A stretch of 64,000 nucleotides of DNA, taken from Lentisphaeria bacterium. Its GTDB lineage: Bacteria; Verrucomicrobiota; Lentisphaeria; JABSQK01; JAWLHB01. Shown here one piece after another: positions 17,462 to 56,586 of this stretch. A model generated the notes under the pieces. It ran no database searches. It had not been told where the DNA came from and saw only the letters and a program-made list of their open reading frames with translations. Positions within the stretch are counted from its first letter, which is position 1. Each line of letters starts with the position of its first letter. Location of the stretch: positions 1 to 64,000 of the forward strand of contig JAWLHB010000002.1 in the NCBI GenBank assembly GCA_041690595.1, read 5' to 3'. The position numbers were made by a program, and so were the translations under genes.

Positions 17462-17471
17462 GAAAAGGATC

Positions 17472-17999: not shown

Positions 18000-18003
18000 C
18001 CGT

Positions 18004-21000
18004 TCAACGCTCTCGCCGGCGGTAGAGCACGATGCGCTCCACATCCTTGACCGCATCGAAAAGCTCACGCAGCAGCGGCAGCACCTCGCTCCGCGCCGCC
18101 GGCAGATCGTCGATCGTCTCGATCGTGATGCTGGTCAGCGGCTGAAAGCGCCGGTTCAGCAGGTGAAGCAGCGGCCCCAGCACCTCCTCCGGCGCCGTTC
18201 CCCCAATCGGCGCGTGAAACGTAATCGCCGCACCGCTCCGCGCCACCGTCATCAGCAGTTCCGCCCCCCGATACACCAGCCAGTTTCCTGACACCCGCCG
18301 CGGCAGCACCCCACGCAAAGCCGGCAGCCGCAGCCCGCACAGACTCGCCGGATCCCGCGCATTCAGCCAGTACACCGGCTGATGCGACCGCTCCCGAAGG
18401 AAATGCCGCAGCCCGTCGTGCGACATGAACTGCAACCCCGGAATCCCCTCGAAGAAGCTCCCGCTGACAATCTCCCCCGCCAGCTCCATCAACCGCAGGG
18501 TACGGAAGAGGCTGCCCCACCGGAACAACGCCCCCTCCCGCTCGAGCAGCTCACGGAAGAGCACCCCATAGCGATCCAGCAGGATGCGCACCCGCTCGCG
18601 ATTGCGCTCGTCCGCCGCCAGCGCGTCATCCTCCGCGGGCGCGTTCGGCAGCAGATACCAGGCGCCGCTCCCCGGCAGGCTCTGCCGCCACTGGTCGAAG
18701 CCGCGCCGCCGGTGGCTCGGCCGATGCGCGCGCCGCTGGGGTTCGACGGGAACACTCGCTGTCGGCGTGGAAAACCGGCTCGCGATCCCCTGGCGCAGGA
18801 GCTGCGCGCTGTCGTTTGCCACATGCCCCTGCCAGACGCCGCGCCAAAGAAGCTCGGTCAACGCTCCCGGCGCCATGTCGCTCTCTTGCGCCAGGCGGCT
18901 GAAGGTATAGCGGCCACCGGCATCGGGAAAGAGCCGCGCCAACTCCTCCGGCAGACGGCGGCTTCGCTCCGCGATCAGCTCGACGTCGGCGGGATTGGCA
19001 AAGGTGATCAACTGCTTGCCCCGCCCCATCCAGAGCAGCCCCCCGGTCTGCAGCAGGGAGTCCAGCCAGGCGGGATCATACTCCTCGCAGCGGGCGGGCA
19101 GGTACTCCCCCTCCCAATCCGCCGGCGCCGTCACCCACCCAGTCAGGATCTCCAGACAGTCCGCCACATGGTCAATCCCGCTGCCCCGCGGCACGAGCCC
19201 CTGCCGTTCCGCCAGGAAGAGCGCCAGGTGTGTCAGCGGTTTCGCCTGCACTTCCGGCCGCGCCTCGGCCCGCGCCAGCCGCAGCAGGATCTCGAAGGAG
19301 TCGCTGTCGCAGCACAACGGCTCGTCACGGCCGATCACCAGCGGCCCCTCGATCATGCGCTCCGTGTCAACCAGATCCATCAGCGCGCCATCCAGCCGCT
19401 CCTTCGCCACGCCCAGCGTCTCGCCCAACCACTCCCGCGAGACCGGGCCGCAATAGGTCAGCCACTCCGCCAGCAGCGCGAGCAACCACTCGTCGTCTTC
19501 GCCCCACAAGGCCCGGCACAGCCGCGCTTCATCTTCCCGCGCGGCAATCAAGCTCCCCCGCCCCCCAGGCTTCTCCAGCCGAATCAGCTTCGGCTCGATG
19601 GCGGCGAGCAACTCGGGCGTCGCCTCCGCCAGGAGCGTTTCCCACTCCTCCGCCGGGACCGGTCCCCGTTCCTGCAGCCACCCCAGCAGATCCTCCGGCG
19701 TATCCGGCGCATACCCCGGTGCCAGCCGTTGACGCTTCGCCACGTAATCCGTCACGATCGAGGCCGGGACACGCGGCCGAAGTTCCGGCGTGAAGACCGC
19801 CTCCTGCAGCAGTTCCTCGCTCAGCCGGGTACCGCCGCCGGCGCGTGGTTGATCATCCTCGTACATATACGCGTTGATCTGCCGCCACGCCATCGTGCGG
19901 GCAAAGGGGCTGGGGGTCAGGCGCCGCACCTCCGACCAGGCGATCGCTCCCGTGCGCAACTCGTCCAGGCGCGCCCGCAGGGTCGGCAGGTCGAACTCAT
20001 CCCGCAGGCAGGTCCGCCAGGCCTCCAGGGTCAGCGGGAAGTCTTCGAGATCTCGCACGGAGGCGAGCAAGCGTTGCGCGCGCAGCCGTGAAACCCACAG
20101 CGGGAGCCGTTCCTTGAGCCGCTGCCGGGTGATCAGCAACGCCCGCCCCGCCGCCTCCCGGAACCGCGCCCCGAAATAGCCGGACCCTTCCAGGCTTTCC
20201 CGCAGCAGCGGCTCGATCCGCTCCGCCTCGACCAAGGCCATCACCTCCGCCCCTTCCACCTCCCGCTCGCAGATCAGGTAGATGCAATCGTCGCCGGCAA
20301 AGACCTCGATCGACTCCCCGAAATGCTCCTGCCAGGCCGCCTGCAGCGCCAGCGCATACGGATAATTCACCGTGCCGCCCCACAAGGTGTGAAGCACAAC
20401 CTGGTACGCCCCGGCCACGCCCCCGGGGCCGCTCCGCACATGCTCCACCAGCAGATGATGGCGATGCGGCAAAGCCGCCTGCGTCCGCTCCCGCTGGTGA
20501 TCCAGATACCCCAGCAGATGCCCGACCGTCCACTCATCCAGCCCCGTGCGAGCCCGCAGCTCCATCGCCAGTCGCGGATCCTCACGCCGCACCTCGATTT
20601 CTTCCAGGAGTTCCGCCAGCAACCGCGAGAAATGCGCATCCCGGTTGATGCTTTCGCCTCGCCAGAAGGGTGCTTCCGCCTCACCGGCCGAGGCGGGCCG
20701 CACCAGCACGTCGTTGTGGGTGATCTGCTCGATCCGCCACCGGCGATTCCCGAAGGAAAGCACCTCCCCCACCCGACTCTCCCACACGTACTCCTCGTCG
20801 AGTTCACCCAGGAGCGCCCCGCTCTCCTGATGGCGCAGATGGAAGTAGCCGCGGTCGGGAATGGTGCCCCCGCCGGAATAGAGCGCCAGCCGTGTCCCCT
20901 TGCGTGCCGTCACCGTCCCCGCCAGCGCATCGATCACGATCCGAGCCTGCAACTCGCGAAGGCGCCGCTGCGCGTATCGGCCCGCCAGCATGTTCAGCAC

Positions 21001-22356
21001 CAGATCGAACTGCCGCCGCGTCAGATGCCGGTAAGGCCAGGCCCGCCGCACCTCGTGAAAGAGGCTCTCGATTGGCCAAGGCTCCACCACCACCATCGCC
21101 GCGATGATCTGCGCCAGCACGTCCAGAGTACCGCTGATCGGCACAATCGGCTCGATATCTCCCGTCCGAATCGCGGCGGCAAGCGTCGCGCACGCCACCA
21201 GATCCTGCCCATGCGTGGCGATCAGCAGCCCCCGGCTCACCTCCCCCACCCGATGGCCGGAGCGCCCCGTCCGCTGCACTGCCGCGGCGATCCCCGATGG
21301 AGCCTGTACCATCACCACCTCGTCCAGCGTGCCGATGTCGATTCCCAACTCCAGGGAGTTCGTCGCCACGATCGCCTTCAGGCGCCCCGCCTTCATCCGC
21401 TGCTCCACCTCCATGCGCATCTCCCGCGACAGCGCCCCGTGATGCGCATAGGCGATCGGCTCATCACAGCCCTGGTTGAGCAGCTGCGTCAACTGCTCGC
21501 AAAGCCGGCGCGTCCGGGCGAAGATAAGCGTCGACCGATGCCGTGCCAGCCGCTCCCGCAGCTTGTCCACGATGGCGGGCCAGATCGAGCCCTCCGCGCT
21601 CAGCCGCTCCATCTCCTCGAAAGGCGCGATAACCGCGATCTCGTACCGCCGCGTCGACGGGGATTCGATGCAGGTCACCTCTCGCGGCACATAGCGCTCC
21701 GGCGCCTCCAGCCGCCTGCCCCCCACCCAGGCCGCCACCTCGTCCAGCGGCCGCAAGGTCGCCGACAAGGCCAGTCTCTGGAACTCCCCCGCCAGCGGCA
21801 CGAGACGTTCCACCGCGCTGATCAGGTGAATTCCCCGCTTCTCCCCCACGATCGCGTGCACCTCGTCCATGATCACCGTCCGCGGGGAGCTGAGCATGTC
21901 CCGCCCACCCGCGGACATCAGCAGCAGGTTCAGGCTCTCCGGGGTGGTGATCAGGATCTCCGGGGGATGACGAAACATGCGCCGGCGCTCCTCCTGGGGC
22001 GTATCCCCGCTGCGCGTCAGCACCCGGATCTCCGGCATCGGCTCACCTGCCGCGGCAAAGCGCGCGCGCAGCCCCGCCAGCGGGCTCAGCAAGTTGCGCT
22101 GGATGTCGTTGTTGAGCGCCTTGAGCGGCGACACATACAGCACGCTCGTCTCCCCCAGAGGCCAGACACCCGCGATCAACTGGTTGAGGGCCCACAGAAA
22201 GGCAGTCAGCGTCTTGCCGCTCCCCGTTGGAGCCGTCACCAGTACATGGTCGCCCGCGGCAATGGCGGGCCAGGCGCGAGCCTGCACCTCCGTCGGTCTC
22301 CCGATCGACTCGTCGAACCAGCGCGCCACAAGAGGATGAAAACCCGCGGGCAGCAT
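18004..22356 (-). CDS. lhr: Lhr family ATP-dependent helicase
   Basis: APTGSGKT, YVSPLKALNND, RSGDT, DEVH, LSAT, HHGALS, SLELGIDIG, QRTGRSGH, GGTIPDRG and C-terminal LLDRYGVLFRE. Confidence 0.95.
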   Translation of the reverse strand: MLPAGFHPLVARWFDESIGRPTEVQARAWPAIAAGDHVLVTAPTGSGKTLTAFLWALNQLIAGVWPLGETSVLYVSPLKALNNDIQRNLLSPLAGLRARFAAAGEPMPEIRVLTRSGDTPQEERRRMFRHPPEILITTPESLNLLLMSAGGRDMLSSPRTVIMDEVHAIVGEKRGIHLISAVERLVPLAGEFQRLALSATLRPLDEVAAWVGGRRLEAPERYVPREVTCIESPSTRRYEIAVIAPFEEMERLSAEGSIWPAIVDKLRERLARHRSTLIFARTRRLCEQLTQLLNQGCDEPIAYAHHGALSREMRMEVEQRMKAGRLKAIVATNSLELGIDIGTLDEVVMVQAPSGIAAAVQRTGRSGHRVGEVSRGLLIATHGQDLVACATLAAAIRTGDIEPIVPISGTLDVLAQIIAAMVVVEPWPIESLFHEVRRAWPYRHLTRRQFDLVLNMLAGRYAQRRLRELQARIVIDALAGTVTARKGTRLALYSGGGTIPDRGYFHLRHQESGALLGELDEEYVWESRVGEVLSFGNRRWRIEQITHNDVLVRPASAGEAEAPFWRGESINRDAHFSRLLAELLEEIEVRREDPRLAMELRARTGLDEWTVGHLLGYLDHQRERTQAALPHRHHLLVEHVRSGPGGVAGAYQVVLHTLWGGTVNYPYALALQAAWQEHFGESIEVFAGDDCIYLICEREVEGAEVMALVEAERIEPLLRESLEGSGYFGARFREAAGRALLITRQRLKERLPLWVSRLRAQRLLASVRDLEDFPLTLEAWRTCLRDEFDLPTLRARLDELRTGAIAWSEVRRLTPSPFARTMAWRQINAYMYEDDQPRAGGGTRLSEELLQEAVFTPELRPRVPASIVTDYVAKRQRLAPGYAPDTPEDLLGWLQERGPVPAEEWETLLAEATPELLAAIEPKLIRLEKPGGRGSLIAAREDEARLCRALWGEDDEWLLALLAEWLTYCGPVSREWLGETLGVAKERLDGALMDLVDTERMIEGPLVIGRDEPLCCDSDSFEILLRLARAEARPEVQAKPLTHLALFLAERQGLVPRGSGIDHVADCLEILTGWVTAPADWEGEYLPARCEEYDPAWLDSLLQTGGLLWMGRGKQLITFANPADVELIAERSRRLPEELARLFPDAGGRYTFSRLAQESDMAPGALTELLWRGVWQGHVANDSAQLLRQGIASRFSTPTASVPVEPQRRAHRPSHRRRGFDQWRQSLPGSGAWYLLPNAPAEDDALAADERNRERVRILLDRYGVLFRELLEREGALFRWGSLFRTLRLMELAGEIVSGSFFEGIPGLQFMSHDGLRHFLRERSHQPVYWLNARDPASLCGLRLPALRGVLPRRVSGNWLVYRGAELLMTVARSGAAITFHAPIGGTAPEEVLGPLLHLLNRRFQPLTSITIETIDDLPAARSEVLPLLRELFDAVKDVERIVLYRRRER

Positions 22357-22361
22357 GATTC

Positions 22362-22853
22362 TCACCCTTCCTGGGCTTCGCCATCTGGTGCCGGAAGCGA
22401 CGTGCAGGCCACCTCCACCGCGTCGGCGATGTAGGAAATGTACCCCGCCAGCGTGATCCCGTCCTCCAGCAGCAGCTCGTCGAGCTGCATGTGCGACTCC
22501 AGCTTCACGGAGGTGCGATTGTCCAGGCCATGTTCGGCGAGGTACTCGTCGATCGCGAAAAGCACCACGCTGTTGTCCCAGTCGAACATGTACATGCTGG
22601 CGATATCGTGCATGTTGTGCTCCGGGTGCAGCCTCTCCGCCGGTACGTTGGCCTGCGCCGCGATATGACGACGCACATGACAGCAAAGCCCACCGAGATC
22701 CCCCGTGCGCCCCAGCGCCGCCGCAAACCGTTCGTCATCCATCCGCTCCGTCGCATTCAGGAAGAGACGGCGATTGCGCGCCGCGATCAGGTGAAAGATC
22801 AGCAGCAGGAGCGGAAAGACGCCGATCACCAGGATCAGGATTATCGTTTTCAT
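22362..22853 (-). CDS. Hypothetical protein with N-terminal TM anchor
   Basis: GAGG RBS; fits tightly between the neighbouring minus-strand genes. Confidence 0.7.
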   Translation of the reverse strand: MKTIILILVIGVFPLLLLIFHLIAARNRRLFLNATERMDDERFAAALGRTGDLGGLCCHVRRHIAAQANVPAERLHPEHNMHDIASMYMFDWDNSVVLFAIDEYLAEHGLDNRTSVKLESHMQLDELLLEDGITLAGYISYIADAVEVACTSLPAPDGEAQEG

Positions 22854-22877
22854 CGCCGTACCTCGGTTGGGCCCGCC

Positions 22878-25800
22878 CTATTGCGGATAGAGCAACAGCT
22901 CGGGCATGTCCGCGCGCAGCTTAACGTAGAGCCACTCGCCATCCGTTTCGATGGTCGCTCCCTTGCCCGTGTCCACCGTCCACTCGCCAGGCAAACGAAA
23001 TCTGACTTGGGCGCCCACATGCTCGTTGCGCGGCCGGATCACTGGAAACTCGCCGCCAAGAATGAGGCTCACCCCCTGGTCGCAGGCCAGCGCAATCTCC
23101 CCGTACTGTACGGAACCCGCCGCGCCCAACGACAGCACCACACCGCCGCTCCGATCCTGTACACTCGCTGCCGTCCCCAGGAAGCGAAGACCCTCCGCCT
23201 CCACCGCCCGCTCCGTCGGCGACAGGAAGCTGTAGTCGGTGCCGAATTCCCCCTGCACCTTGATCACGTGGCCATCGGCCAGGGTCGTGAAGGTCGGCAC
23301 CGGCTCATCCGCGCGACGCGGGAAGATGGCCACGAAGTAGGCGCCATCACCCCCCATCTGCAGGTGAAAAAGGTCCATGTACTCCTCATACAGATGGATC
23401 GGGGTGTACTTGTAGTCCCGGCCCCACCGCAACGTGTGGCGCGGTGTCTCGCGCGGGCTCGCGACATAATACTCCACATCGACCCCGAACTGCCCAAGCG
23501 CCGTGAAACGGTCCCCCTCCAGCGCCCGCGGCGGCAGGATCTGCTTGCCCGGCTTGTCCGCCAGGAAGGCCTCCCGATCGCGCACCTCGTCCGGTGTGCC
23601 AATCTTGTCGGTGATCGTCCAGAACTGCCACATGGTCGGCTGGTCCCCGGTCACCGTGTCCCGCAGGACCAGGTAATTCGTCCCCCCAGGCAGATAGTCG
23701 CGGACAAAGAGAACCTGCCGCGTCCAATCCACCGGCCCCGTCGCCTCCCGCTCGACGGGCGGCCAGGCCGGGACCTCGTTCAGATGGTTGTGGCCACCGA
23801 AATGGTTGATCGTCTGCGCCGATTCGATGGTCAGCTTCGCCGACACGTAATCCTGGTGCGGCAGCGCGGAACTCTCCGTGACCCGCCGCTGCCCCCGGTG
23901 AAAGAAACGCGCCTGCCGCTCTTCGATGGTGCCGCTCCCGCGCGCCGGAAGCACCCGGCTCAACAGGATCTCCTCCCGCTCCGCATAGCCCCCCGCGAAC
24001 CGCGACGAGATGGGCACACCCTTCGCCCAGATGCAGGGAAAGTTCCCGCTCTCGCTCGGATAGCCGAAGCTGTACTCGATCATGAAGGCAATGTACCACT
24101 CATCCTCCGTGCCGATCCCGTGCCGCATCAGCGTGCCCGTCTCGGGAAAGAAGTCGAATCCCCACTCCGGCACCTCCGCCGGCAGAGTCTCGTCCGCGTA
24201 GACGTACTCCCAGCCGCCCATCTGCGTGTTGGCGATCTGCAGGCTCTTACCCGTCTGCAGCCAGCTCCACTGCTGGTGACGCGAATAGACAGGATCGAGA
24301 TCCCGCTGCGCCCGCGCCATGATGCCCGCCAGCCCGAACTGCCCACCCGCTCCCGCCCGGCCCAGAGGCGCCGTGCCGGCAAGGCCCGCCTTGCGCTGGC
24401 CGCCGCTGCGCGGATCCAGAGGCGTATAGTACTTCGCCAGCCACGTAAAGAGCAGCTTCAGCCGGGGGTCATCCAGGTAATCCGCAAAATCGCTCTTCTC
24501 GTGGAAACCCGCGTTGTGAGCGGCAATCACGAACGGCAGCAGCGCGCTCGCCGAAACGTGTGCATAATTGCACACACTTTCCGGCCACTCCCCCTTCGGG
24601 CCAACCGATTCGGCCAGCCACTTCTCCATCATCGCCATGGCCGGATGCGCCCACTCCCGCGCCTTCGGGTGATCGAAGAGCAGCGCCGCGATCATCCCCA
24701 GGTTCAGCGTATACGACACGCTCATGTTCTGGTTGCCCGAGCAGTAGCCGCGTTCCATCGACCAGGTGGAGGGATCCGCCATCAGGTAGCCGAGGTAGGC
24801 CATCTGGCCCTGCAGCTTCGGCACCTCCTCCGCCGGCACCAGGCCACTGTCGATCAAGGCATCGTAGAGTCCCACCAGGATTCCCACGTGCCGCATCCGA
24901 TCGAAATCTCCCAGAAGCCCAAGATGATTGCGCAACCGCTCCACCAGCAGCGCATCCGCCGCGAAAGCCGCCGTGCCATCCCGCAGCCAGAGCCCCAGTG
25001 CATCCGCATCCGAACCATGCGGCCCTGCCTGCATCCCCTTCCACCGGCTCGCCAGCCGCTGCTTCTCCTCGGCCGTCACCGGTCGGCTTGCCTGCGCCTG
25101 AGCCACCTCCGCCGCCGTCATGTAGACATGCGGATGCGCCGCCTCCGGCGCGCGCTCCCACGACAACTGCCAGTCCTTCAACTCGTTCAGCGCCCGCGAC
25201 TGCTTGGGCACCGCCTCCAGCAGCGCATCCACGAACCACTTGCGATGACCGCTCGCCAGATTGAAGTCCGCCGCAAAATCCCCCTCCTCCGTCTTCACCA
25301 GATAGACCCACTTCTGCCGCTGGCGCGGATTCCCCCACGAGGCCCATGTTCCCGGCGCCGCCGGCTCCACCCACACCCCCGGATCCCGCTGCATCAGGCG
25401 AAAGAGGCTCCCCGCCTCCGCCGTATTGAAATCCCACTTCGTGCGGGTCGTGCCATCCCACCAGTCTTCCCACGGCACCAGCGCCGCGCGCCGCCCCGCC
25501 GGCTCGTCCGCCAACATCACCTCCATCTCCTCGAAGACCCACTTGCCCCCCTCGTACACCTGCTTGCCCCACGGGTTGCGCTCGTTGTAGAACTCCGCCT
25601 TCGTGTGCATCCGCAACGCCTCGCGCCCCGGCGTCAACAGCAGCTGCCATCCATCCTCGACCGGCCGGTTCGCGGCGATCCGCTCCCCCTCGTTGAAGCC
25701 CGCGTAATCGACCAGCCGGGCCGCGGCGGCCGCATCGTATGGCGTCACCAGCATCCCCCACTCCAGACGGGAATCACCCGCTCCCAGCCGCACCTCCAGG

Positions 25801-26447
25801 CTCAACTGGCGACCATCCTCGTAATCGTACCGGCATTCCCACGCCGCCACCGCCGGGCCTTCCGCCGTCACCCGCGCCGTGTACCCGACGACCTTGCCAG
25901 GCCCCGTCAGCCGACTCCCGCCAAACCAGCGCCCGTCGCTCAGCCACAGCCCGGCCACCGGCCCCGACACCGCCGATGCCGCCATCCCCGTCTCATAACG
26001 CTGTTCCCCCTCGATCAGCCGCACGCCGATCGTCGAGGTGGCCAGTTCCACCATGCCGGCCTCGCGCCTCACCTGGAGATCGCCTGCCTCCGTCAGCGGC
26101 GGCGCATCCTTCTTACCGTAGGCCAGCATATACTCGCGCTTTTCCTGCGCCGAAAGATCCGTCACCCAGACCAACTGGCCGCTCTTCGCGCTTCCATCCG
26201 GCCAAAGCTCCAGCTTCATCAACTGCACCGGCACCCGACCATCCGGCCCCGTCAGCACCAGCGAACCCACCGCACAGGCGCCCTCCGCAAAGGCAACCGG
26301 ATACTCGACCACCTCCCGCCGCCACTCCTGTCCAAGCCAATCCCGAAGCTCGAAGCGCAGACTCTCCGCCCCCGCTGAGATCGTCATGCCCACCACCGCC
26401 ATTGCCACTCCGAAAGCCCTGAACATAAGCGTCGCTCCCCTTTTCAT
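22878..26447 (-). CDS. Large secreted protein, heparinase II/III-like polysaccharide lyase candidate
   Basis: Signal peptide; GNQNM, GEWPESVCNYAH, FFPETGTLMRH and WTRQVLFV resemble alpha/alpha-toroid plus beta-sandwich lyases. Confidence 0.6.
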   Translation of the reverse strand: MKRGATLMFRAFGVAMAVVGMTISAGAESLRFELRDWLGQEWRREVVEYPVAFAEGACAVGSLVLTGPDGRVPVQLMKLELWPDGSAKSGQLVWVTDLSAQEKREYMLAYGKKDAPPLTEAGDLQVRREAGMVELATSTIGVRLIEGEQRYETGMAASAVSGPVAGLWLSDGRWFGGSRLTGPGKVVGYTARVTAEGPAVAAWECRYDYEDGRQLSLEVRLGAGDSRLEWGMLVTPYDAAAAARLVDYAGFNEGERIAANRPVEDGWQLLLTPGREALRMHTKAEFYNERNPWGKQVYEGGKWVFEEMEVMLADEPAGRRAALVPWEDWWDGTTRTKWDFNTAEAGSLFRLMQRDPGVWVEPAAPGTWASWGNPRQRQKWVYLVKTEEGDFAADFNLASGHRKWFVDALLEAVPKQSRALNELKDWQLSWERAPEAAHPHVYMTAAEVAQAQASRPVTAEEKQRLASRWKGMQAGPHGSDADALGLWLRDGTAAFAADALLVERLRNHLGLLGDFDRMRHVGILVGLYDALIDSGLVPAEEVPKLQGQMAYLGYLMADPSTWSMERGYCSGNQNMSVSYTLNLGMIAALLFDHPKAREWAHPAMAMMEKWLAESVGPKGEWPESVCNYAHVSASALLPFVIAAHNAGFHEKSDFADYLDDPRLKLLFTWLAKYYTPLDPRSGGQRKAGLAGTAPLGRAGAGGQFGLAGIMARAQRDLDPVYSRHQQWSWLQTGKSLQIANTQMGGWEYVYADETLPAEVPEWGFDFFPETGTLMRHGIGTEDEWYIAFMIEYSFGYPSESGNFPCIWAKGVPISSRFAGGYAEREEILLSRVLPARGSGTIEERQARFFHRGQRRVTESSALPHQDYVSAKLTIESAQTINHFGGHNHLNEVPAWPPVEREATGPVDWTRQVLFVRDYLPGGTNYLVLRDTVTGDQPTMWQFWTITDKIGTPDEVRDREAFLADKPGKQILPPRALEGDRFTALGQFGVDVEYYVASPRETPRHTLRWGRDYKYTPIHLYEEYMDLFHLQMGGDGAYFVAIFPRRADEPVPTFTTLADGHVIKVQGEFGTDYSFLSPTERAVEAEGLRFLGTAASVQDRSGGVVLSLGAAGSVQYGEIALACDQGVSLILGGEFPVIRPRNEHVGAQVRFRLPGEWTVDTGKGATIETDGEWLYVKLRADMPELLLYPQ

Positions 26448-26537
26448 GATGATTCGACTGTGCGCTGGAAAAAGATAACTCACCCCCGCGCGGAATGCAC
26501 CCGCAACTTCCACATCCCTCCACCGCCTCTCCCCCTC

Positions 26538-26565
26538 TTGACATCGATCCGCGCCACCCTATTGT
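26538..26565 (+). promoter_or_regulatory. sigma70-type promoter for the GH28 gene
   Basis: TTGACA-N16-TATTGT. Confidence 0.55.
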
Positions 26566-26613
26566 CAGGTGCCTCCCCTGCATCCGCCCAACTTCCCATC
26601 AGGAGTACCCCTC

Positions 26614-27786: not shown

Positions 27787-27869
27787 AAAATCACGCCGGA
27801 TTCAGACGAGGAACCCACGATCAGCCTCAACTTTATTTTAGTAGAATTTTAGCCTCTCGAATATAGGGC

Positions 27870-27898
27870 TTGAGTTTCAGCTTATCCGCAAGTATAGT
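27870..27898 (+). promoter_or_regulatory. sigma70-type promoter
   Basis: TTGAGT-N17-TATAGT in an AT-rich gap upstream of 27940. Confidence 0.6.
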
Positions 27899-27939
27899 GA
27901 GCTCTTCAGAAGGCGCTCAACCCATCCACGGAGAATCCG

Positions 27940-28632: not shown

Positions 28633-28746
28633 CGACTTCACCCGCGGAAGCGGCATCCTCCTGCCCCATCATCCCACTTGGCGCCGCACGCCTCCCGCAT
28701 TATCTTAGCCGGCATACGCACCACACCTCCGCATAAGGAAGTCGCC

Positions 28747-42684: not shown

Positions 42685-42700
42685 GATCGATTCTCCGTGT

Positions 42701-46481: not shown

Positions 46482-46493
46482 GACCTCCTGGCG

Positions 46494-49400: not shown

Positions 49401-49814
49401 GCTTCCGCGGGGATGCATGCGGCTCCACCGATAGCCTTTCGCGTTGCAGAGAAACTGATAGCGGCTTCCATCGACAGCCTCGGGCGCCGGATCGATCCAG
49501 ATCTCGATGGAGTCGTCCTGAGCGAGCTTGGCGACAGGCAGGTGGACCTCGGCGAGGATGCCGCCTTCGACCGGCATCTGGGAACGGACGGCCACGTAGA
49601 TGTGGGAGCTTGTGGCCATGATCCAGCCACTGGCCTCCCGAGGATCGTCGACAAAGTCATCGATCCGGCTTCCCATGCGCCACTCACCGTCACCGATCAC
49701 GCCATCGATGACCGGCGGGCCGGAGGCGAGTGGGAGGACGATCTGCCGGGAGGTCTCCCGAGCCTCAGCGCACAGGCAGGTGACGAGGGCGATGAGGAGA
49801 ATGAGAATGCGCAT
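46494..49814 (-). CDS. Large secreted putative glycoside hydrolase (CBM9-like N-terminus, DUF6067-like middle)
   Basis: Signal peptide; PVIDG..DGEW, DDSIEIWIDP, WNCEIAIP, NDRGW, LQAAPVKP, GVFWDN; paralog of 60176-63592. Confidence 0.75.
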   Translation of the reverse strand: MRILILLIALVTCLCAEARETSRQIVLPLASGPPVIDGVIGDGEWRMGSRIDDFVDDPREASGWIMATSSHIYVAVRSQMPVEGGILAEVHLPVAKLAQDDSIEIWIDPAPEAVDGSRYQFLCNAKGYRWSRMHPRGSTDREESYEARWQTASSFEDGWWNCEIAIPVATISPRRMSGDGTWLIDIRRNWQRPRQQAAMGESRLRFVGTPIPVVSLLERGASHAGKLHRELQVLNTLDKEIHVLAALRVEREGMPDLVRESVLHIPPDESRSLDLREEDPTSRQWTLQAAVTSIDKQTTFFRHRTTWLHTGPFIWKTHVDPAHPIDFDFAYYPGANRLRVRASVRHLPAEARLTALRAEIRKRGSQEAIAEIVFDRIVGGSQEKGVDLPPLDGEYEIALIATGTNVPGEPRIKPFIRRRFPWEGKKYGVTDRVFPPFTPIVVDGKSVRTVLRQHDMNDFGLWNQAIVAAQNTRIEKPLLARPMRYVIRMNGRESELKAERLQFIQTDSHMARARCSFTAEGFAATAEITWEYDGMMRVDLTLTATAAPLEMLQLEIPLLNEAATHLHAIGDGSRNAVTMLVPGRQGSVWSSQEIPVRDLPPNFCSYVYLGTPARGLCWFAANDRGWSWNPVTPNVVLLRDEKESVLQVNLVNQPILIQQPRVITFGLQAAPVKPRLDAQAWRYMYQRQGYRAMSSATCWGGFTPLAGVYPPNRDLLVWQRLAQSNLEGALAPADIDAVVAHYAPLFAPFTELSWQGQSPFQLWEETVRRSLSGVRHDERMIYYYNRACHLLEEEFLTYQDEWGMSDWRTDWQAQGTEVNHDLKIVPNESFLDYHLHWYDRAFAVGRGQGVFWDNLFLAATTNTRQSMAYTLPDGSIRPSTGIWGLRELAKRTFQFMAERGMPPITMARVSSNNILPIHAFATITTDLDWKFGQGMMQERFTPAYHLMVTNGELAGAWPVAKGDEGTADSWLIPRSYTGALLVHDVYWGEGRAGYALLRPVVELLERPGAKVWRYWDDGPAAVTGGSDALLPIAWYRPGERALIGLTNYRREAVKMELAIHADMLGMKAAGYSARDYETMSRYRIVDAKLVVEIPAFETRLIEILPQ

Positions 49815-49912
49815 GGAGGCTCCAGGAAAGATGCGTCAAGGCTCTGAAAGGCACGACAATTTAATCTGCCACCATGGCCACGCATTACAATGCAGCACAC
49901 CGCTCCCGCCAG

Positions 49913-50227
49913 TCAACCCTCGCGTTCCAACTCCCGCCGCGGCGCAGGCAGGCTGGGAAAGAGTTGGCGATGCAGCAGCTCGTCGACGAGGTTACTCCGG
50001 CGCAGGCAGGGATCGTCGGCCCGGAGGCGGTGCACCTTGCCACGCCGGGTGACCACATCGATACTGCCATCCTCCTGAACGGAACTCACGGTCCAGTACT
50101 TGTCCACAAAGTACCAGTAGGTTTCGCCATGCTCGCTGGGAGCGATCTTTCTGGCGCGCGGCCCGGGCTTGGACGACGCCTTCTGTTTGCGATAGACAAT
50201 ATGGTCGCCAACCTTCAACTTCTTCAT
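49913..50227 (-). CDS. Small basic hypothetical protein
   Basis: VGDHIVYRKQK..PGPRA..PSEHGETY.Y.VDKYWTV; AGGA RBS; protein-like composition. Confidence 0.7.
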   Translation of the reverse strand: MKKLKVGDHIVYRKQKASSKPGPRARKIAPSEHGETYWYFVDKYWTVSSVQEDGSIDVVTRRGKVHRLRADDPCLRRSNLVDELLHRQLFPSLPAPRRELEREG

Positions 50228-50277
50228 GCTCATTTTCCTGGCTGCACGTTAACCGGTCTATGGCCGTCCGCGACGCG

Positions 50278-51786
50278 TCAGAAAGACATACGCTGCGCGA
50301 TCCGGTTCTTGACGGCTTCGTCCGTTGTCGTTTGAAAGATTTCGCGGAGGAGCTGCTGGGTTTCCGGAGATGGACTGTTGAGCAGGGCCTGCGCGGTTTC
50401 GAGGCGCACGGTGGAACTCTCGTCATCCATGGAAATCTTGACGATCTCCGGCCACTCGGGCAGACGGTGGGCGACGACGTAATGAATGGCCTTGCCACGT
50501 ACGCCAGGGCTCTCATCGAGGAGCAGTTCCATGAGCAGGTCGCCGGCCTTGTTGCGCGGCTGCATGGCGGCCAGGGTGACGGCAAGCTCGCGCACGTCGC
50601 CATGGCGGCTGGAGATGAGCTTGCGGATCCAGTCGAGCATGTTGTCGGGGCGCTGGTCGGGCGGCATCATCATGACCAGCATGCCGGCTTCCTGACGGAC
50701 GGGGGCAAAGCTGTCGTCGAGCAGCGACCACAGTTGTTCAAATTTGATTTCTCCGGGGTGTCGTCGGCCGAAGCTCTTGAGGGCGGCGAGGCGATAGCGG
50801 GTGTTGCGGTGCTCCAGGAGGCGGCGCAGGGCTTGCTTGCCGGGGTCGCCGATGCGATCGAGCGACTCGATGATGCGTTCGGCGTTCTCGTGGCGCATGC
50901 GATGATCATCGAGAGCCGCCAGCAGTTGCTCCAGGAAGTGGGCGTCGCCCTGCTGAAGAAGGGCGAGTTGAGCCTCGGTGGCGACGGCGAAATCGTCATC
51001 CTTGGCCAGCTTGAGGAGGGGCTCGCGGGTGATCTGCAGTGGCAGGCGGCCAAGATTCTGCGCAAGCTGCAGGCGAATGATGGAATCGGGATCCTCGATA
51101 AGGGGAGTGGTGACGGCAATCAGACGTCGGGGATCGCCGGCGACGAGCATGACGGCCTGCTCGAGCGCGAGCATGCGGATGTCGCGGTCCTTGTCCTCGA
51201 GCAGGGGCAGAACTGCCTCGACGTCGAGATAGCGACTGAGCAGGGTGAAGTGACGGAGCATGTTCTTGCGCACCGTGGCGTCACTGTCGCGAAAGGCCTG
51301 GCGCACAGCCTGCCGGGCCGGCGGCGAGAGGGCACCGCTCGCCTCGGGAGGAAGGCCCGGGAAGCCGATGCGCTGCATCAACAGGGCCTGCTGAAGGAAG
51401 GTAGAGACGATACGGCGAATGTGGACATTCTCGTCCTCCAGCATGAGGATGAAGTGCTCGCCAGCCTCGGCAAACTGGCGATTCTCGACAATTGCCACCA
51501 AGGCGGACTGGCGGATCTGCGCGTCGGGATCGCGCAGGGCCTGGAGCACCGCCTGCACCGCCGCGGGATGACGATACTTGCTGAGCACCAGAACGGCTCG
51601 CTTGCGATCATCCACCGAGGCCGACCGAAGATCCTTCACCGCTTTGGCGACCGTTTCAGCTTCGCTCTCGTGGGCGCTTTCCGGGGGGGGCGGCGCCTGC
51701 CCAGCGGCGGGACGCACCGCCACGATTCCGCAGATCATGCAGAGGATAATGAGGTGCAGAAGCCTGCAAGCTGGATGATCGACCAC
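50278..51786 (-). CDS. Secreted HEAT-repeat protein
   Basis: Repeated L.D.D..VR..A motifs after a signal peptide. Confidence 0.88.
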   Translation of the reverse strand: MVDHPACRLLHLIILCMICGIVAVRPAAGQAPPPPESAHESEAETVAKAVKDLRSASVDDRKRAVLVLSKYRHPAAVQAVLQALRDPDAQIRQSALVAIVENRQFAEAGEHFILMLEDENVHIRRIVSTFLQQALLMQRIGFPGLPPEASGALSPPARQAVRQAFRDSDATVRKNMLRHFTLLSRYLDVEAVLPLLEDKDRDIRMLALEQAVMLVAGDPRRLIAVTTPLIEDPDSIIRLQLAQNLGRLPLQITREPLLKLAKDDDFAVATEAQLALLQQGDAHFLEQLLAALDDHRMRHENAERIIESLDRIGDPGKQALRRLLEHRNTRYRLAALKSFGRRHPGEIKFEQLWSLLDDSFAPVRQEAGMLVMMMPPDQRPDNMLDWIRKLISSRHGDVRELAVTLAAMQPRNKAGDLLMELLLDESPGVRGKAIHYVVAHRLPEWPEIVKISMDDESSTVRLETAQALLNSPSPETQQLLREIFQTTTDEAVKNRIAQRMSF

Positions 51787-51831
51787 GCTGGTCCTCGCGT
51801 TTCCGTATGAGTGTTGAGAGCCTTCGACAGG

Positions 51832-52449
51832 TTAGACGCCGAGCAAGCCGGCTTGTTGCAATTCCCTGGCAATGCGCTCGGCCATCCTGCGATAGCCGTC
51901 GGCATTGGGGTGGATCGCGTCAGACATCAGCTCGTCCCGGTTGCGGATGCCATCGAGAATCTCGGGAATATATAACACCCCATAGGCTTTGCACAGCTTG
52001 CCGTACTCACGATTGCGCGTCGGGTTGAGCGGTCCGGTGATCCCGGTGAAGACGACGACGGCGCCGCTGTCGATCAGAGTCTGGAAGATGGTCTCGAGGT
52101 TGGCGCGGGTTTCGTCCCAGGGTTTGCGCTGGAGGATGTCGTTGCCGCCGAGGGTGACGATGACGATGCCGAATTCGCTGCCGGCAAATCGCGCGAGCTT
52201 GGCGACGCCATCGGAGGTGGTGTCGCCGCTGGTTCCCCAGGCCTGCACGGGGCGGCCGGTGATCTGGGCGAGATGCGCGGGATAGGACTCTGCTTCCTTG
52301 GCGCCGACGCCGGATACGAGGCTGTCGCCAAAGCAGCAGATGATGGTGTTACGCGGAGGGACGTTGGCCAGCTCGCGGCCGCATCCACAGAGGAGGAGCA
52401 CGAGCATCGCGCCAACGGCGGACGGGAGGCTATAGAGGTTGTTCGTCAT
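51832..52449 (-). CDS. SGNH/GDSL arylesterase (TesA-like), probable lipoprotein
   Basis: FGDSL, SGDTT, LGGND, DAIHPN; lipobox LCGC. Confidence 0.92.
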   Translation of the reverse strand: MTNNLYSLPSAVGAMLVLLLCGCGRELANVPPRNTIICCFGDSLVSGVGAKEAESYPAHLAQITGRPVQAWGTSGDTTSDGVAKLARFAGSEFGIVIVTLGGNDILQRKPWDETRANLETIFQTLIDSGAVVVFTGITGPLNPTRNREYGKLCKAYGVLYIPEILDGIRNRDELMSDAIHPNADGYRRMAERIARELQQAGLLGV

Positions 52450-53185
52450 AATACTGGGAGATGTTGATCCGCCTGCGAACGCTGGCGGTGGCCCGTTCGC
52501 AAGAGATGAGATGGCGATGGTGAAAGCAGATGTCGCCCGGCGCCAACTTGAGCAGGAGCGCCGAGCTTTCGTCTACGGGTTCGGTGATGGCGTGCCAGCG
52601 GGAGTTGGCGACCTTGGCATGAGGCAGGAGCCCCCGGCGATGGCTGCCCGGCACGACCCACAGTTCGCCTCCTTCGCGCGACGATGCGAGGAGCGGCATC
52701 CAGGAACGTATCCCCTGACAATCGTGGCCGTCAAGTCGCCAGGAAAACTCCGCTTGATGCCAGGGCACGGCGATACTGGCACCCGGCTCCCAGACGACGA
52801 CCTTCAGCAGGAAGATCCTGGCAGCCATTGCCCCCAGGAGGATCATGGCCACGCGCTGCAACTCGGCGTGGGTAGCGCAGGCATCGAAGGCGGGATCGGG
52901 CGCGGGGAAGCGGGTCATCACGAGCTGACGGATCATGCCGTCGTCCGGCAGGCTGGAGCCATCGCCGGGAGAGCCGACGGCGATGTGGCGCGCGGGATAG
53001 CGACCTTCAAGGAGGCCGTCCGTCCGTTCGATCATGGTGCCAATGGTGCTCCGCGGCAGCAGCGCTCGCAGGATCACATATCCTTTCTGGCGATAGTCCT
53101 GAGAGGCGGCGAAATCGAGTTGGTCGTGCACGGTCTGCCCCGGGCTGCGGTTGCAAAGCCGTACCATACGCGCAACCAGTGTCAA
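52430..53185 (-). CDS. PhyH-like (phytanoyl-CoA dioxygenase fold) protein, apparently degenerate
   Basis: YRQKGYVI, PWHQ, SWMPL, GELWVVPGSH, LAPGDICFHH. Confidence 0.7.
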   Translation of the reverse strand: MTLVARMVRLCNRSPGQTVHDQLDFAASQDYRQKGYVILRALLPRSTIGTMIERTDGLLEGRYPARHIAVGSPGDGSSLPDDGMIRQLVMTRFPAPDPAFDACATHAELQRVAMILLGAMAARIFLLKVVVWEPGASIAVPWHQAEFSWRLDGHDCQGIRSWMPLLASSREGGELWVVPGSHRRGLLPHAKVANSRWHAITEPVDESSALLLKLAPGDICFHHRHLISCERATASVRRRINISQYYDEQPL

Positions 53186-53225
53186 CAGTCAACAGGCAGG
53201 CGCGAATGCGGCAGGAACCGCGAGC

Positions 53226-54077
53226 TTACCAGAAGCGCCACCAGGGCTTGGGGGCTGGAGCAGCTTCGACCGGACGCAGGGCGCTATCTTCGGCCTCCAG
53301 CTCCTCCTCCATCTCGCGCGTCATCATGATGGTGCGGGCGCCGGAGATATCGTCCTCCGCGTCCAGCTCGACACCTTGCAGCTTCGCTTCATCTTCGCGG
53401 GTCATGATGAGGGTGCGGTCCCCGGCGGGATCGTCCTCCTCGTCATCGAGCTTGACGGAAGCAGCGGCCGCGTTGCCGGCGCGGTAGGCCTCTTCGTCCA
53501 ACTCGTCCTCAGGGTCGACCAGTCCGCCGTCATAGTCGAAAGGCTCCTCGTCGTCGAGGGTCGCCAGGAGGGGATAGACGATGAACTGGGCTTCGCCGAG
53601 GGTGTCGAAGTTGTAGCCAAGCCCCAGCGCGAGGTCGAGGATGGCATCCTCGTCGAGGTCAGCGAGGTTGATCTGCTCTTCAGCAGGCAGAGGCTCACCG
53701 AAATCCTCGGCAAGCGCACCGCCGGTGACGAGCAGGTCACGCCGCTTTTCGCCCTTCTGATAGAGACTGAGGCCGTAGGTGCCGCTGCCGGCTTCGACCA
53801 TGATCGCAAGAACCTTTCCATAATCGCGCGAAAAGGCGGCGAGTGCCTCCTCTTCGGTGTAGAGGACCATTTCCGGGTCGAGAATACTGGTCCACCCGCG
53901 GTGGAAGGCGACAGCCTTGTCCTCGGGCTCATCGAGGGCCTCCATGGCGGCGGCAAACCCGTCAGCGTCCAGGGTGGCGTCCTCATCAGGCAGATCGTAC
54001 TGGCTCTGCAGGAAGAAGTCCGGTACGGCACCGCGCGCATCTCCCTCGATAGCGATGACACACATATGAAGGCTCAT
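53226..54077 (-). CDS. Highly acidic hypothetical protein ending PWWRFW
   Basis: GAGGAG RBS; GWTSILDPE and GTYGLSLYQKGEKRR domain followed by a D/E-rich tail. Confidence 0.75.
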   Translation of the reverse strand: MSLHMCVIAIEGDARGAVPDFFLQSQYDLPDEDATLDADGFAAAMEALDEPEDKAVAFHRGWTSILDPEMVLYTEEEALAAFSRDYGKVLAIMVEAGSGTYGLSLYQKGEKRRDLLVTGGALAEDFGEPLPAEEQINLADLDEDAILDLALGLGYNFDTLGEAQFIVYPLLATLDDEEPFDYDGGLVDPEDELDEEAYRAGNAAAASVKLDDEEDDPAGDRTLIMTREDEAKLQGVELDAEDDISGARTIMMTREMEEELEAEDSALRPVEAAPAPKPWWRFW

Positions 54078-54319
54078 GGCGGTTGTCTCCTCAGCTTCTC
54101 CGATCACTTGGCAGGCATGCCTGGGTGGCAAACCGTCCGCGATCTTGCGCATACAGTAGCGCGTCAACGCCTAACCACCAATCGCAACCGCAAATCGCCC
54201 CCCAGAGCGAGGAGGCGGTAGCGTGGGAAGAAGGGGAAGAAGGAAGCGACAGCGCAGTGGGGCAGTTCGCGAAGCGGGCGAAGCGGACGCGAGAGGAGCG
54301 TAGTGACGAAGTACCGGTG

Positions 54320-55102
54320 CTATCGTGCCAATTCTGCGGGCTGGGGCATTTCGTCGAATGTTCGCCCGTCGAGCAGGCGACCAGCCTTCTTCTTGTTTAC
54401 CCCTCCCCATTGTTTGAAAAAGAAGGGGACGGACTGCCTGGCACATCGCTGTTGAACCCCGCGCACCCATTCGGCCTCCATAGGCCTGGCACCGGGGCCG
54501 GACTCGCCGCCGACGATCACCCAGTGAATGCCGTCCAAGGTCAGGTGCGGCAGGGGGCCAAGCAGGGGTTCGCAGGAGAGGAAGCGAGTAAGGCTTCCCA
54601 CGGCCCGCAGGTTATCGACGCGCTCCAGGACCTCCTCACTCTCGACGCTGGTGCCCATCCAGATGTTCGGCGTCCACGTCAGGTGCGCGGAGATGGCGGC
54701 CGCCCGCTCCGGCCGTTTGGTCAACACCTGAAAGGTGTGCATGCGGCAGGCGTTCATGACGGCGAACATCTCCTGGATGAAGTCCAGCGGCACGTTCTCA
54801 TGGAACGGGTCGCTCATGGAATTGACGAAGAGCACGCGAGGCTGCCGCCACGTGTGGGGCTCCCGCAAAGCATCCCAATCCAGGAAGATGGCTCCGTTCC
54901 AGCGGCCTTGCGGCGTCAGCACCTTCTCGTAGTTGGCGGTGCGACCAGGGTCGTCGCCACGATCACGCGCCGCTCTGGCCATAGCCACCAGTCGCTTAGC
55001 CATGCGCTCGGCATAGCAGTGCTTGCACCCCTGGCTAACCTTGGAACAGCCAACCACCGGGTTCCACACGGATTCCGTCCACTCGATCTTACTATTAGCC
55101 AT
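54320..55102 (-). CDS. DUF5131 / phage Gp37-Gp68 family protein
   Basis: SKIEWT..WNPVVGCSKVSQGCKHCYAE, FVNSMSDPFH, FQVLTKR, SCEPLLG, WVIVGGESG, FFKQWGG. Confidence 0.93.
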   Translation of the reverse strand: MANSKIEWTESVWNPVVGCSKVSQGCKHCYAERMAKRLVAMARAARDRGDDPGRTANYEKVLTPQGRWNGAIFLDWDALREPHTWRQPRVLFVNSMSDPFHENVPLDFIQEMFAVMNACRMHTFQVLTKRPERAAAISAHLTWTPNIWMGTSVESEEVLERVDNLRAVGSLTRFLSCEPLLGPLPHLTLDGIHWVIVGGESGPGARPMEAEWVRGVQQRCARQSVPFFFKQWGGVNKKKAGRLLDGRTFDEMPQPAELAR

Positions 55103-55216
55103 CGGCCAATGCCCTTATGGTGACGAGTCGAGGCTTTCCGATGCAGCAGTCATAGCTGAAACCGATCCGCCCAGAGTAGTCGACCACCTTTGCCCCGCAG
55201 TTCTGCCTGGCCGATT

Positions 55217-56440
55217 TCAACTATGAATGGGGGCCTTTTGGAGTTCGTGGAGGAGTGCGTCGACGCGGTCCAGGAAGGCTGCCTGCATGGGACGCAGGGG
55301 GCTGATGTTGGCTTCGTAGGCGCCTTGCTCCTGAATCTCGTCGGTAGGGATGTAACCGATGAAATCGTTGACGACGGAGAAGAGGAAGGTGTGCGCGAAG
55401 GGGCTGCGCTCACGAATCATGGCGCGGTACTCGCTGACTACTTCACCCGGAGCGCCGACGATTGCCAGATCGCCGACCCGCAGTCCAGAGAGAGCGGTTT
55501 GCACCTGCTTTCCCTGCTGGGCGTAGGGGAAGTAGATGGCCATGCGCCCATCCAGCGCCCAGGTTGTGGTGAAGGACCAGGGCTCGCTGGCCCCCGCCAC
55601 CGCACGTCCGGCCAGCGGCTTCAAGGTGGGCAACGCTTCGAGGATGTGGGCGGCGAGCCGCTCGCCAATGTCGCGCACTACTGCCGGATCCGCCTGGCAG
55701 CCGTTCACGGGATCGATATTGGCGTGTCCGGAAACGGTGATATGCGAAGTCCTCACCTGCCCCGAGGCTTCAAGTGCATCCTTCATGTAGCTGACGTAGT
55801 CCCCGGAGATGCCGAGATTGGCGCCGCTGTAGGCGACCGGATGACAACCGAAGCTGACCAGCAGCGCCTCCAGAGTGCCGTCTGGGCGACGCACGCCGAG
55901 CAGGTCGGCGGTCGGGTCCGCATAGCCGGGATTGCTGCCCTCAGGGTCGCGGAAGCGGTTGGTCCACGTGCCATCCTCGAGTTGGATGCGACGGTTGCTG
56001 CAGAGCTCCGGTGCCGATGCCTGCCCGACCAGCAACTCGCCGGTGGCGCGAGCGCCCCAGGCGGAGACGGCCACATCCACCAGTCTGTCGGCCAGGTCGC
56101 GAAAGTAGCCGCTTTCCAGCTCCGACTGTTCTCGCCAGAGGGCGTCGGTGACGTGGGGACCGGAGTGCGTGTGGGTGGCCGCCAGCATGATCGCGCTGAC
56201 CGGCAGGCCAAGCCGCTCGGCGACGGTCTTGCGCACGCGGTCGCTCAGCAGGATGTTGAAGGCGCCCACATCCGCGGTCAACAGAAGCCACCCGCCCTCC
56301 TCGGCTCCACAGGCCAGGGCCTCCGCCCGCAAGGGATGTTCCACGGAGGTGGAGGTTCGGGGGTTATAGCCCCACAGGGTGACGCCGACAGGCGGGGTGA
56401 TATCGATCCGGGCGGTTCCGATGTTGAGAGAGTTGCTCAT
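55217..56440 (-). CDS. Neutral/alkaline ceramidase-like hydrolase
   Basis: DITPP, ATHTHSGP, NRR, FGCHP, SGDY, PGE, GYIP, YE. Confidence 0.8.
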   Translation of the reverse strand: MSNSLNIGTARIDITPPVGVTLWGYNPRTSTSVEHPLRAEALACGAEEGGWLLLTADVGAFNILLSDRVRKTVAERLGLPVSAIMLAATHTHSGPHVTDALWREQSELESGYFRDLADRLVDVAVSAWGARATGELLVGQASAPELCSNRRIQLEDGTWTNRFRDPEGSNPGYADPTADLLGVRRPDGTLEALLVSFGCHPVAYSGANLGISGDYVSYMKDALEASGQVRTSHITVSGHANIDPVNGCQADPAVVRDIGERLAAHILEALPTLKPLAGRAVAGASEPWSFTTTWALDGRMAIYFPYAQQGKQVQTALSGLRVGDLAIVGAPGEVVSEYRAMIRERSPFAHTFLFSVVNDFIGYIPTDEIQEQGAYEANISPLRPMQAAFLDRVDALLHELQKAPIHS

Positions 56441-56586
56441 GCGGTCATGCTCCAGCGGGTGAACACTTGAATGGGATGAGAATGTACATCAAGAAGGGGA
56501 TTCTCCAAACCTGAGGCCGGAGACTAGGGAGTGAGGCGAGGGGGGAGGCCAGGAGAGTAGATTTAAATATTGGTTCATTCTATTAT

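Follow-up and report, generated by a model that had tools for sequence, protein, structure and literature searches.

The stretch analysed here (the window) comprises the first 64 kb of contig C2 of a Lentisphaeria bacterium genome (assembly GCA_041690595.1, here G000; 8.1 Mb in 99 contigs, 97% complete), in which a Y1 HUH transposase-like gene lies between two arrays of hairpins, close to a tRNA gene, at the place where synonymous sites of the + strand change from C-rich to G-rich. The left array (33376..33979, + strand) is built of 4.1 tandem units of 148 bp, 98% alike, each of which contains an imperfect hairpin with a CTAG foot (at 33448, 33596, 33744, and 33892) and a second short palindrome. 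The Y1 gene (33972..34430, - strand), which is present in a single copy, encodes a protein of 152 amino acids that matches PF01797 with 92 bits and has the HVH and Y---Q--HH motifs of the IS200-like subclass 1.2. The right array (34440..35021, - strand) is inverted with respect to the left one, includes a tandem repeat of 2.5 x 109 bp, and bears four GTAG-footed copies at 34499, 34652, 34842, and 34951. The tRNA-Lys(CTT) gene (35429..35504, - strand) is the sole Rfam match in the window. Both arrays have their foot-first strand on the C-rich strand, and the same is true of a copy of a dispersed hairpin family of 40 loci, similar to repetitive extragenic palindromes (REP), at 32836..32900 (+ strand), as at 20 of the 24 loci of this family that lie in skewed DNA.

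The Y1 gene shares the HUH motif and the Y1 domain with the TnpA-REP/RAYT proteins and, like them, is flanked by inverted hairpins with GTAG-type feet, four copies on each side. It differs from them in its signature, which is Y---Q--HH instead of Y---NP (signatures as given in the available text of PMC6006769), and in its hairpins, which are confined to their own locus (no copy was found elsewhere in the genome), whereas cognate REPs of RAYT proteins are found across the chromosome. With TnpA Y1 proteins of subclass 1.2 it shares Y---Q--HH, a short core, and the single copy, but these genes are generally without terminal structures, according to the same partly available source, while the window gene has eight GTAG/CTAG-footed hairpins in two inverted arrays. 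Judged from these sequence features, the gene and its arrays resemble a REPtron in layout, yet the gene would not be classed as a RAYT. A different, multi-copy Y1 element family, encoding 310 amino acids, is found at C12:39041-39973 and in at least 8 further copies or fragments, 91-93% alike and often at contig ends.

The skew was measured on 5,693 genes predicted with a purpose-built codon model; GC4 is the G versus C skew at fourfold sites of the + strand, corrected for codon-box bias, and TA4 is the T/A skew at fourfold sites. Between 18.0 and 33.4 kb, the fourfold sites of the + strand carry C 782 times and G 103 times in plus genes, and C 1045 times and G 386 times in minus genes. Between 35.5 and 56.5 kb, G exceeds C by 352 to 317 in plus genes and by 1435 to 753 in minus genes. 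The skew is tied to the DNA strand and not to the gene, as a preliminary description of this DNA had claimed from hand counts of C and G in four 60-mers (30/8, 33/10, 14/33, and 14/27), which are all exact and for which the gene strands were named correctly. The left arm (1148..33397), C-rich on the + strand in both gene orientations, goes from a GC4 of about -0.1 at 1-4 kb to about -0.7 by 30-33 kb, with -0.6/-0.7 at 26.6-33.4 kb; it starts well to the left of 18 kb, where that description began. The reversal that had been placed across 33.4-35.5 kb is real and was located in 33398..35663, where GC4 steps from -0.67 to +0.21 in 4-kb flanks, which ranks sixth among the 41 sharp upward steps at the 2,941 intergenic boundaries of the genome. 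The right arm (35664..64000), G-rich on the + strand, has +0.53 in its first gene, at 35.7-36.5 kb, as expected from the earlier account of where the bias is strongest, then about +0.1 to +0.4, with a mean of +0.18 up to contig position 67 kb, where it ends approximately. The full scan bears out a gradient towards the locus in the left arm (Spearman rho -0.79, p 3e-5) but not in the right arm (rho -0.28, p 0.20), so the gradient is one-armed. An Lhr-family helicase gene of 1,450 amino acids (18004-22356, - strand) lies in the C-rich arm.

The window flip is one of about a hundred in the genome, and it is neither unique nor an origin. In contigs of at least 30 kb, 7.69 Mb in total, GC4 changes sign from C to G 52 times and from G to C 64 times, with a median domain of 34-35 kb. 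The values in 5-kb segments have a standard deviation of 0.29 and extremes of 0.6-0.9. The + strand skew of adjacent genes is correlated in pairs on opposite strands (r 0.69, 1,445 pairs) and in pairs on the same strand (r 0.78, 3,785 pairs). Between the skew classes, fourfold G increases from 0.16 to 0.59 as C decreases from 0.69 to 0.24, with A and T nearly constant and with a G+C content at fourfold sites of 0.83-0.84 in skewed genes against 0.81. Intergenic DNA and amino-acid use shift in the same direction, and the patches contain core genes such as mutS, uvrA, and recBCD. Gene orientation follows neither the skew nor the replichore, and ribosomal-protein genes are found on G-rich and on C-rich strands. 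GC4 is no longer autocorrelated at 30 kb, whereas the T/A skew keeps an autocorrelation of 0.13-0.23 as far as 300 kb; between GC4 and TA4 there is a weak negative correlation (r -0.16). The skew changes sign inside a gene of 3,943 codons, and duplicates that are 75-85% identical have diverged towards the local skew (379 pairs agree and 231 disagree). Several features of the profile were observed in addition. A single open reading frame of 18,145 codons (C17:23770-78204, - strand) has a smooth internal gradient from -0.5 to 0.0, between some neighbouring sharp upward jumps the skew declines linearly (for example C5 107-197 kb), and in genes longer than 1.5 kb the sense-strand G/C skew drops by about 0.1 from 5' to 3' in all skew classes.

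Beneath these patches, an ordinary chromosome with two replichores and one dif terminus persists. After local skew had been removed, GGGTGGGG was the top long-range polar word (z 7.2). Its strict forms point in one direction in 18 of 19 cases on contig C1 and in 8 of 8 on C2, two to the left and six to the right of the junction; two octamers in the window, at 8857..8866 and 31195..31204 (positions +/- 2 bases, both on the - strand), were located, the first in the same direction as all eight strict copies on the contig. Its copies converge within C10 53-59 kb, where a dif-like site lies at 56,081; this is one of ten matches to a dif pattern and the sole one at a convergence, and GC4 is flat there. 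The octamer is named here KOPS-like, after the FtsK-orienting polar sequences, because it points to dif; binding of FtsK is only predicted. GC4 shows no step at its positions. Of 41 genomes searched, 28 contain the dif-like site, most of them in one or two copies. The two copies in G025 and in G028 lie on different large contigs, a sign that each of these genomes may have two chromosomes. The dnaA gene is distant from the polarity switch both here (C5:206.6-208 kb) and in G035 (C1:608 kb), a relative in which the word diverges near 2.44 Mb.

The T/A skew follows the same two arms. Over 32 oriented contigs (4.9 Mb, 478 windows), leading-strand TA4 equals 0.057 - 0.080 x local GC4, and it is still +0.09 to +0.10 in patches whose leading strand is C-rich. 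In these anti-replichore domains, T/A follows the replichore in 37 of 43 cases and the octamer keeps its direction 35:24, against 15:71, 18:67, and 23:122 for decoys of the same length. Since the octamer and the T/A skew keep their direction across patches, the patches are not replichores, and inversions explain them poorly. The same holds at the window junction, where the preserved octamer polarity and T/A sign argue that the step is neither oriC nor ter and disfavour a simple inversion. An inversion breakpoint had been offered as an alternative in the preliminary description; TA4 in the right arm is -0.07 (877 sites), which is the sign of the whole contig C2, where about +0.04 would be expected after an inversion, and octamer copies inside the arm are very few. 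Provided that the polarity of the KOPS-like word is trusted, the window step can be rejected as oriC, there being 52 C-to-G changes in the genome, an octamer that points one way in 8 of 8 cases, and the same T/A sign on both sides. It was also rejected as a terminus, because the dif-like site with the converging word lies elsewhere, at C10 56,081. The noted absence of dnaA, dnaN, and a DnaA-box cluster holds as well, with dnaA on C5 and dnaN on C18; a DnaA-box pattern has one match in the window and 81 in the genome, with one pair on C12.

The weak T/A and KOPS bias obeys the replichores, and the much stronger local G/C bias does not. The two also differ in their substitutions. The local signature, obtained from G-class versus C-class genes, is a log G/C shift of 1.6-2.2 in 12 of 12 neighbour contexts, with G/A about 1, T/C about 0.85, and T/A about -0.2, while the signature of leading versus lagging genes is a T/A shift of +0.2 to +0.3 with G/C about 0. 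A sequence-specific deaminase or methylase is an unlikely cause of the local signature. As the two strand biases are separable in this genome, a strand-specific mutational or repair process beyond those currently listed is implied, one that moves synonymous G from 16% to 59% and shifts amino-acid use.

Gene boundaries lie at or near 35 of the 52 C-to-G centres and 17 of the 64 G-to-C centres. Among the 41 sharp upward steps, 18 have a dispersed repeat (background 8.4%) and 31 a spacer of at least 300 bp (background 22%); among 30 sharp downward steps, the numbers are 6 and 14. The idea that C-to-G switches coincide with repeat arrays genome-wide is supported in part by this enrichment. The mean step is +0.125 at repeat spacers (n=218, p 3e-8) and +0.007 at other spacers (n=772), and repeat-bearing spacers show a one-sided upward step from 0.32 to 0.48, against 0.35 to 0.36 in matched controls. 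The association with tRNA genes extends likewise beyond the window, since tRNA spacers step upward by +0.152 on average (n=40, p 5e-4). At 20 sites, the arm ahead of the fork and the arm behind it have the same initial strength (0.34 and 0.31). Inside the patches, no polar words were found beyond composition, save for an effect ascribed to palindrome avoidance. Assembly gaps, of which there are 19, were ruled out as the cause of steps. A CRISPR-like array of 98 repeats (C22:19518-29052) lies exactly on a sharp C-to-G step, and sbcDC (C42:69.5-74.6 kb) and a UvrD/AddA-like gene (C5:196.8-201 kb) adjoin such steps, which may be chance.

The genome has many dispersed intergenic repeat families, and their orientation follows the local patch. 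For the five leading cores, the loci oriented with and against the local skew number 69:4, 49:5, 37:6, 46:1, and 38:1, and two of these cores are oriented with the skew despite a contrary composition of their own. Two controls made of insertion sequence (IS) ends show no bias (10:11 and 8:8). When neighbouring repeats are paired, orientation flips with the skew in 34 of 42 pairs and is unchanged in 51 of 62 where the skew is unchanged. For 13 cores, picked from 30 after their bias had been seen and merged into 216 loci, 133 of 142 loci are concordant at |skew|>0.2, where 108 would be expected if skew were a fork-direction probability. Repeat density rises with skew from 16 to 68 per Mb, and loci with several hits are unanimous in 131 of 138 cases. 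The repeats follow the patch at 39 of 39 loci in anti-replichore and at 35 of 38 in pro-replichore patches. Changes polarised within repeat copies run 134 with and 67 against the local skew, a count that is confounded by motif position and was not used. In the largest family (89 loci), orientation also agrees with the replichore, by 47:4, and the family is almost confined to patches with a C-rich leading strand (28 versus 2). An AT-rich intergenic repeat of 17 bp (43 loci), whose opposite strand resembles a sigma-70 promoter, points with the local skew 38:1 and occurs in the strongest patches.

In families with a GTGG foot, the foot-first strand is the C-rich strand in 38 cases against 3. TnpA-REP acts on the GTAG-bearing single strand, according to the available part of PMC3333891, and IS200-type enzymes use the exposed lagging-strand template, as stated in the accessible portions of PMC6006769 and PMC3971601; the C-rich strand is thus probably the exposed one. 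A calibration of the exposed strand in weak-skew regions gives 32:17, of which one family, on which the result rests, contributes 18:3. REP arrays of opposite orientation on the two chromosome halves are mentioned in the available text of PMC3116915.

The reading that we prefer, and to which we give an even chance of being right, is that a second strand-specific DNA-turnover process works outward from intergenic hot spots. Ordinary replication of two replichores would be accompanied by a separate turnover in tracts of about 10-40 kb, which would set out from fixed hot spots between genes (repeat clusters, tRNA genes, and long spacers), extend to one or both sides, and have a direction independent of fork and gene direction. 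The strand that reads 5'-3' away from the hot spot would be repeatedly removed and re-made, by long-patch gap repair or recombinational break repair, leaving its partner exposed as a single strand. Over time, the re-made strand would gain G and lose C, and the exposed strand would offer an insertion site for HUH-type hairpin elements, hence their accumulation and co-orientation. Tracts of neighbouring hot spots would cancel in diffuse G-to-C zones. The window would contain a single hot spot, strong in its left arm and weak in its right. We infer that the anchor is the C-to-G end and that the process is repair synthesis. The genome has homologues of RecBCD, SbcCD, PriA, MutSL, DnaE2, RNase HI/HII, and uracil glycosylase, and in E. 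coli SbcCD cuts hairpins and RecBCD yields 3' overhangs (PMC7326373, in the part available).

The initial event is unlikely to be HUH nicking, hairpin cleavage by SbcCD and R-loops being alternatives. The hairpins and the Y1 enzyme are no more than candidate causes, and the repeats may mark hot spots and not create them. The window hairpins fail as a general cause, because a family found at a single locus cannot account for the other 51 C-to-G changes. The idea put forward for this locus, that hairpin arrays are sites of recurrent nicking and bidirectional synthesis or repair, survives insofar as the evidence is best read as a local strand-specific process at intergenic sites of this kind, and is corrected in that the footprint is mainly one-armed and not bidirectional. 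A bolder form, which we consider rather doubtful, would have a second, origin-independent synthesis start by HUH nicking at dozens of hairpin and tRNA sites and re-make one strand over tens of kb, reinforcing itself through hairpins of the same orientation; domesticated Y1 enzymes and their repeats would then recode the whole chromosome and could serve as back-up origins.

Several results weigh against the turnover process. In genes of at least 2.4 kb (n=548), the internal gradient tracks the flanks weakly (r 0.11), so a large part of the change is located at the borders of genes, the outcome expected of rearrangement. Duplicates that are 85-95% identical show no trend (221 agree and 211 disagree), and the genome is strongly rearranged, with dnaA, dnaN, recF, and gyrB apart. 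Sharp downward steps exist, and their repeat content differs from that of the upward steps with a Fisher p of 0.044. None of the 30 dispersed repeat cores is found at 23 of the 41 sharp upward steps, none of the 7-, 8-, and 10-mers at steps is enriched (z-score spread 1.0), and hairpin strength or stem length alone predicts steps weakly (t 2.3). Concordance of repeats falls to 44 of 69 at |skew|<0.2, and all 30 cores together give 194:36, the better subset having been chosen post hoc. The largest family, which also follows the replichore, does not discriminate, the 310-aa Y1 family has no clear orientation by skew, and T/A follows the replichore in just 27 of 44 pro-replichore domains.

Secondary conditional origins, where DnaA-independent forks primed by R-loops or D-loops would leave the C-to-G steps, run for 10-40 kb, and meet at G-to-C zones, while a single-origin mode would still shape KOPS and T/A, would give the jumps and linear declines of a fork-direction map; tRNA genes at steps, the unlinked dnaA and dnaN, the lack of a DnaA-box cluster at dnaA, and the use of multiple origins by some cyanobacteria with irregular skew (PMC7198777, in the part available) agree with them. 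T/A should reverse under an opposite-going replisome, and it does not; the local and replichore signatures differ, repeat concordance exceeds the fork-probability model, RNase HI is present, initiator, clamp, and helicase are single-copy, and genes are not co-oriented with the G-rich strand, so that we hold such origins to be unlikely. A mosaic of inversions and rearrangements, in which an old G/C replichore skew would have been shuffled and would persist in a long memory while T/A and KOPS have been re-adjusted, is in our estimation more unlikely still. It would account for the broken conserved operons, the weak within-gene gradients, the young duplicates without local trend, and some short blocks that are sharply bounded at either end; fourfold A/T probably turns over faster than G/C at a fourfold G+C of 82%, and odd skew plots are known to arise from inversions (PMC8941118 and bioRxiv 808410, as far as available). 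The repeats (best non-local match about 86% identical) follow the patch and not the replichore in 74 of 77 informative loci, so the inversions would have to postdate the repeats and yet predate the recovery of KOPS and T/A. The present replichores are almost without G/C skew, flat relatives are common, single giant genes contain gradients, and the upward changes are placed differently from the downward ones and have another repeat content, which random inversions would not produce.

Anchoring the process at the G-to-C centres instead, with breaks there, outward resection, cytosine loss on an exposed G-rich strand, and repeats and tRNAs as barriers, is improbable. Mean amplitude does peak 5-9 kb on either side of these centres, repeats are densest 10-20 kb away, and cytosine is known to be lost in 3' overhangs, which gives the fitting polarity. 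Against it, 47 of the 64 centres fall within genes, as by chance, and have no motif, the window skew increases along 30 kb towards the array and ends at it, the G-rich strand has no gain of T over A and no context preference, and foot-first repeat strands are on the C-rich strand. Biased gene conversion, in which incoming single strands from oriented hairpin starts would be C-rich because C mismatches escape repair, is very improbable. C:C mismatches are known to escape repair, and a context-free G/C shift without a T/A shift fits unequal mismatch repair, as does one-sided decay from repeats the conversion itself; many steps are without repeats, however, and the fourfold G+C of skewed genes is only slightly higher. 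It can hardly be maintained that the window step reflects a join made in the assembly or is the origin of the chromosome. Tandem arrays of about 600 bp lie at the step, its polarity is that of an origin, and no public contig bridges it: in four sequencing runs, which contain 7-13% of the words, short low-depth pieces match both arms and none spans the junction. However, the arrays and the tRNA flank are unique in the genome, which leaves no second locus to be exchanged for this one, there are 40 further sharp steps, some in spacers shorter than 130 bp, the octamer and T/A keep their sign, and the window has a single DnaA-box match.

The patches can be compared with several known systems. Replichore GC skew (PMC3025954, available in part), which switches at oriC and at ter/dif, is likewise a strand-tied, gene-independent excess of G over C at synonymous and intergenic sites, and the window step has the polarity of an origin, but here there are about 116 sign changes and not 2, the skew is flat at the real dif site, and T/A is uncoupled from G/C. 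Elements of the IS200/IS605 type, oriented by lagging-strand single-stranded DNA (PMC3971601, PMC3333891, and PMC6006769, in their accessible parts), are also strongly oriented hairpin elements tied to Y1 HUH enzymes, whereas most families here follow 30-kb patches and not the replichore, with a C-rich foot-first strand. [quoted passage not shown] No duplicate of the arms longer than 500 bp and more than 80% identical was found among the longest self-comparison pairs. Cyanobacterial genomes with multiple origins (PMC7198777) show an irregular cumulative skew and unlinked dnaA and dnaN; here, the long-range T/A skew and the octamer retain an asymmetry at replichore scale, the KOPS/dif architecture is clean and two-armed, and the local amplitude at fourfold sites is 0.6-0.9.

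In vertebrates, N-shaped skew domains lie between replication origins, and skew is found at meiotic break hot spots. The upward jumps and linear declines are shared with these N-domains, but the patches described here are bacterial, far shorter, limited to G/C, and set in an intact chromosome with a single terminus. No account of replichore-independent skew patches in bacteria was found in the literature searched, which was chiefly non-subscription and without supplements, and genome-wide patches seem to be undescribed to that extent. What the analysis adds is their separation from an intact KOPS/dif architecture and their distinct signature. GC skew in bacteria is taken to record the direction of replication and serves for placing origins and judging assemblies (bioRxiv 808410, available in part), and extra skew peaks are treated as inversions, misassembly, or possible extra origins (SkewDB PMC8941118 and bioRxiv 808410, in the portions available). 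The patches bear on the irregular skew of some phyla, which need not mean several origins or misassembly, on a G-over-C bias beyond lagging-strand deamination, and on the access of REP elements to single-stranded DNA.

No relative came out of a metagenome scan queried with the gene at 32.1-32.8 kb, and the 80 loci that a contig scan returned for the gene at 35.7 kb, with 44-56% identity, belong to unrelated taxa and show no synteny. Ten relatives, none of the same genus or family, were profiled over 54-400 kb each, with G014 unscored. G025 has an ordinary one-sided skew, G003, G007, and G012 have flat profiles, and G001, G002, G004, and G020 have a modest skew (standard deviation 0.11-0.19). 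In the complete chromosome of G035, the polar word was matched 31 times and changes direction exactly twice, and in 200 kb of its 5.7 Mb, within one replichore, GC4 ranges from -0.28 to +0.27 while TA4 is negative in 16 of 20 windows, which is the same decoupling of GC4 from the replichore in weaker form. Strong or switching skew within 20 kb was seen in 4 of 49 unrelated loci (L003, L044, L073, and L082; three Verrucomicrobia and one Phycisphaerales), a lead only.

Two further observations concern the gene content of G000. Pilin-type N-termini were counted in 125 cases and suggest an affiliation with the PVC group. The S10-spc-alpha superoperon is in three pieces (C4:263-269 kb, C32:12.3-19.7 kb, and C28:41-45.7 kb), with breaks in mid-contig between rpsS and rplV and after secY.

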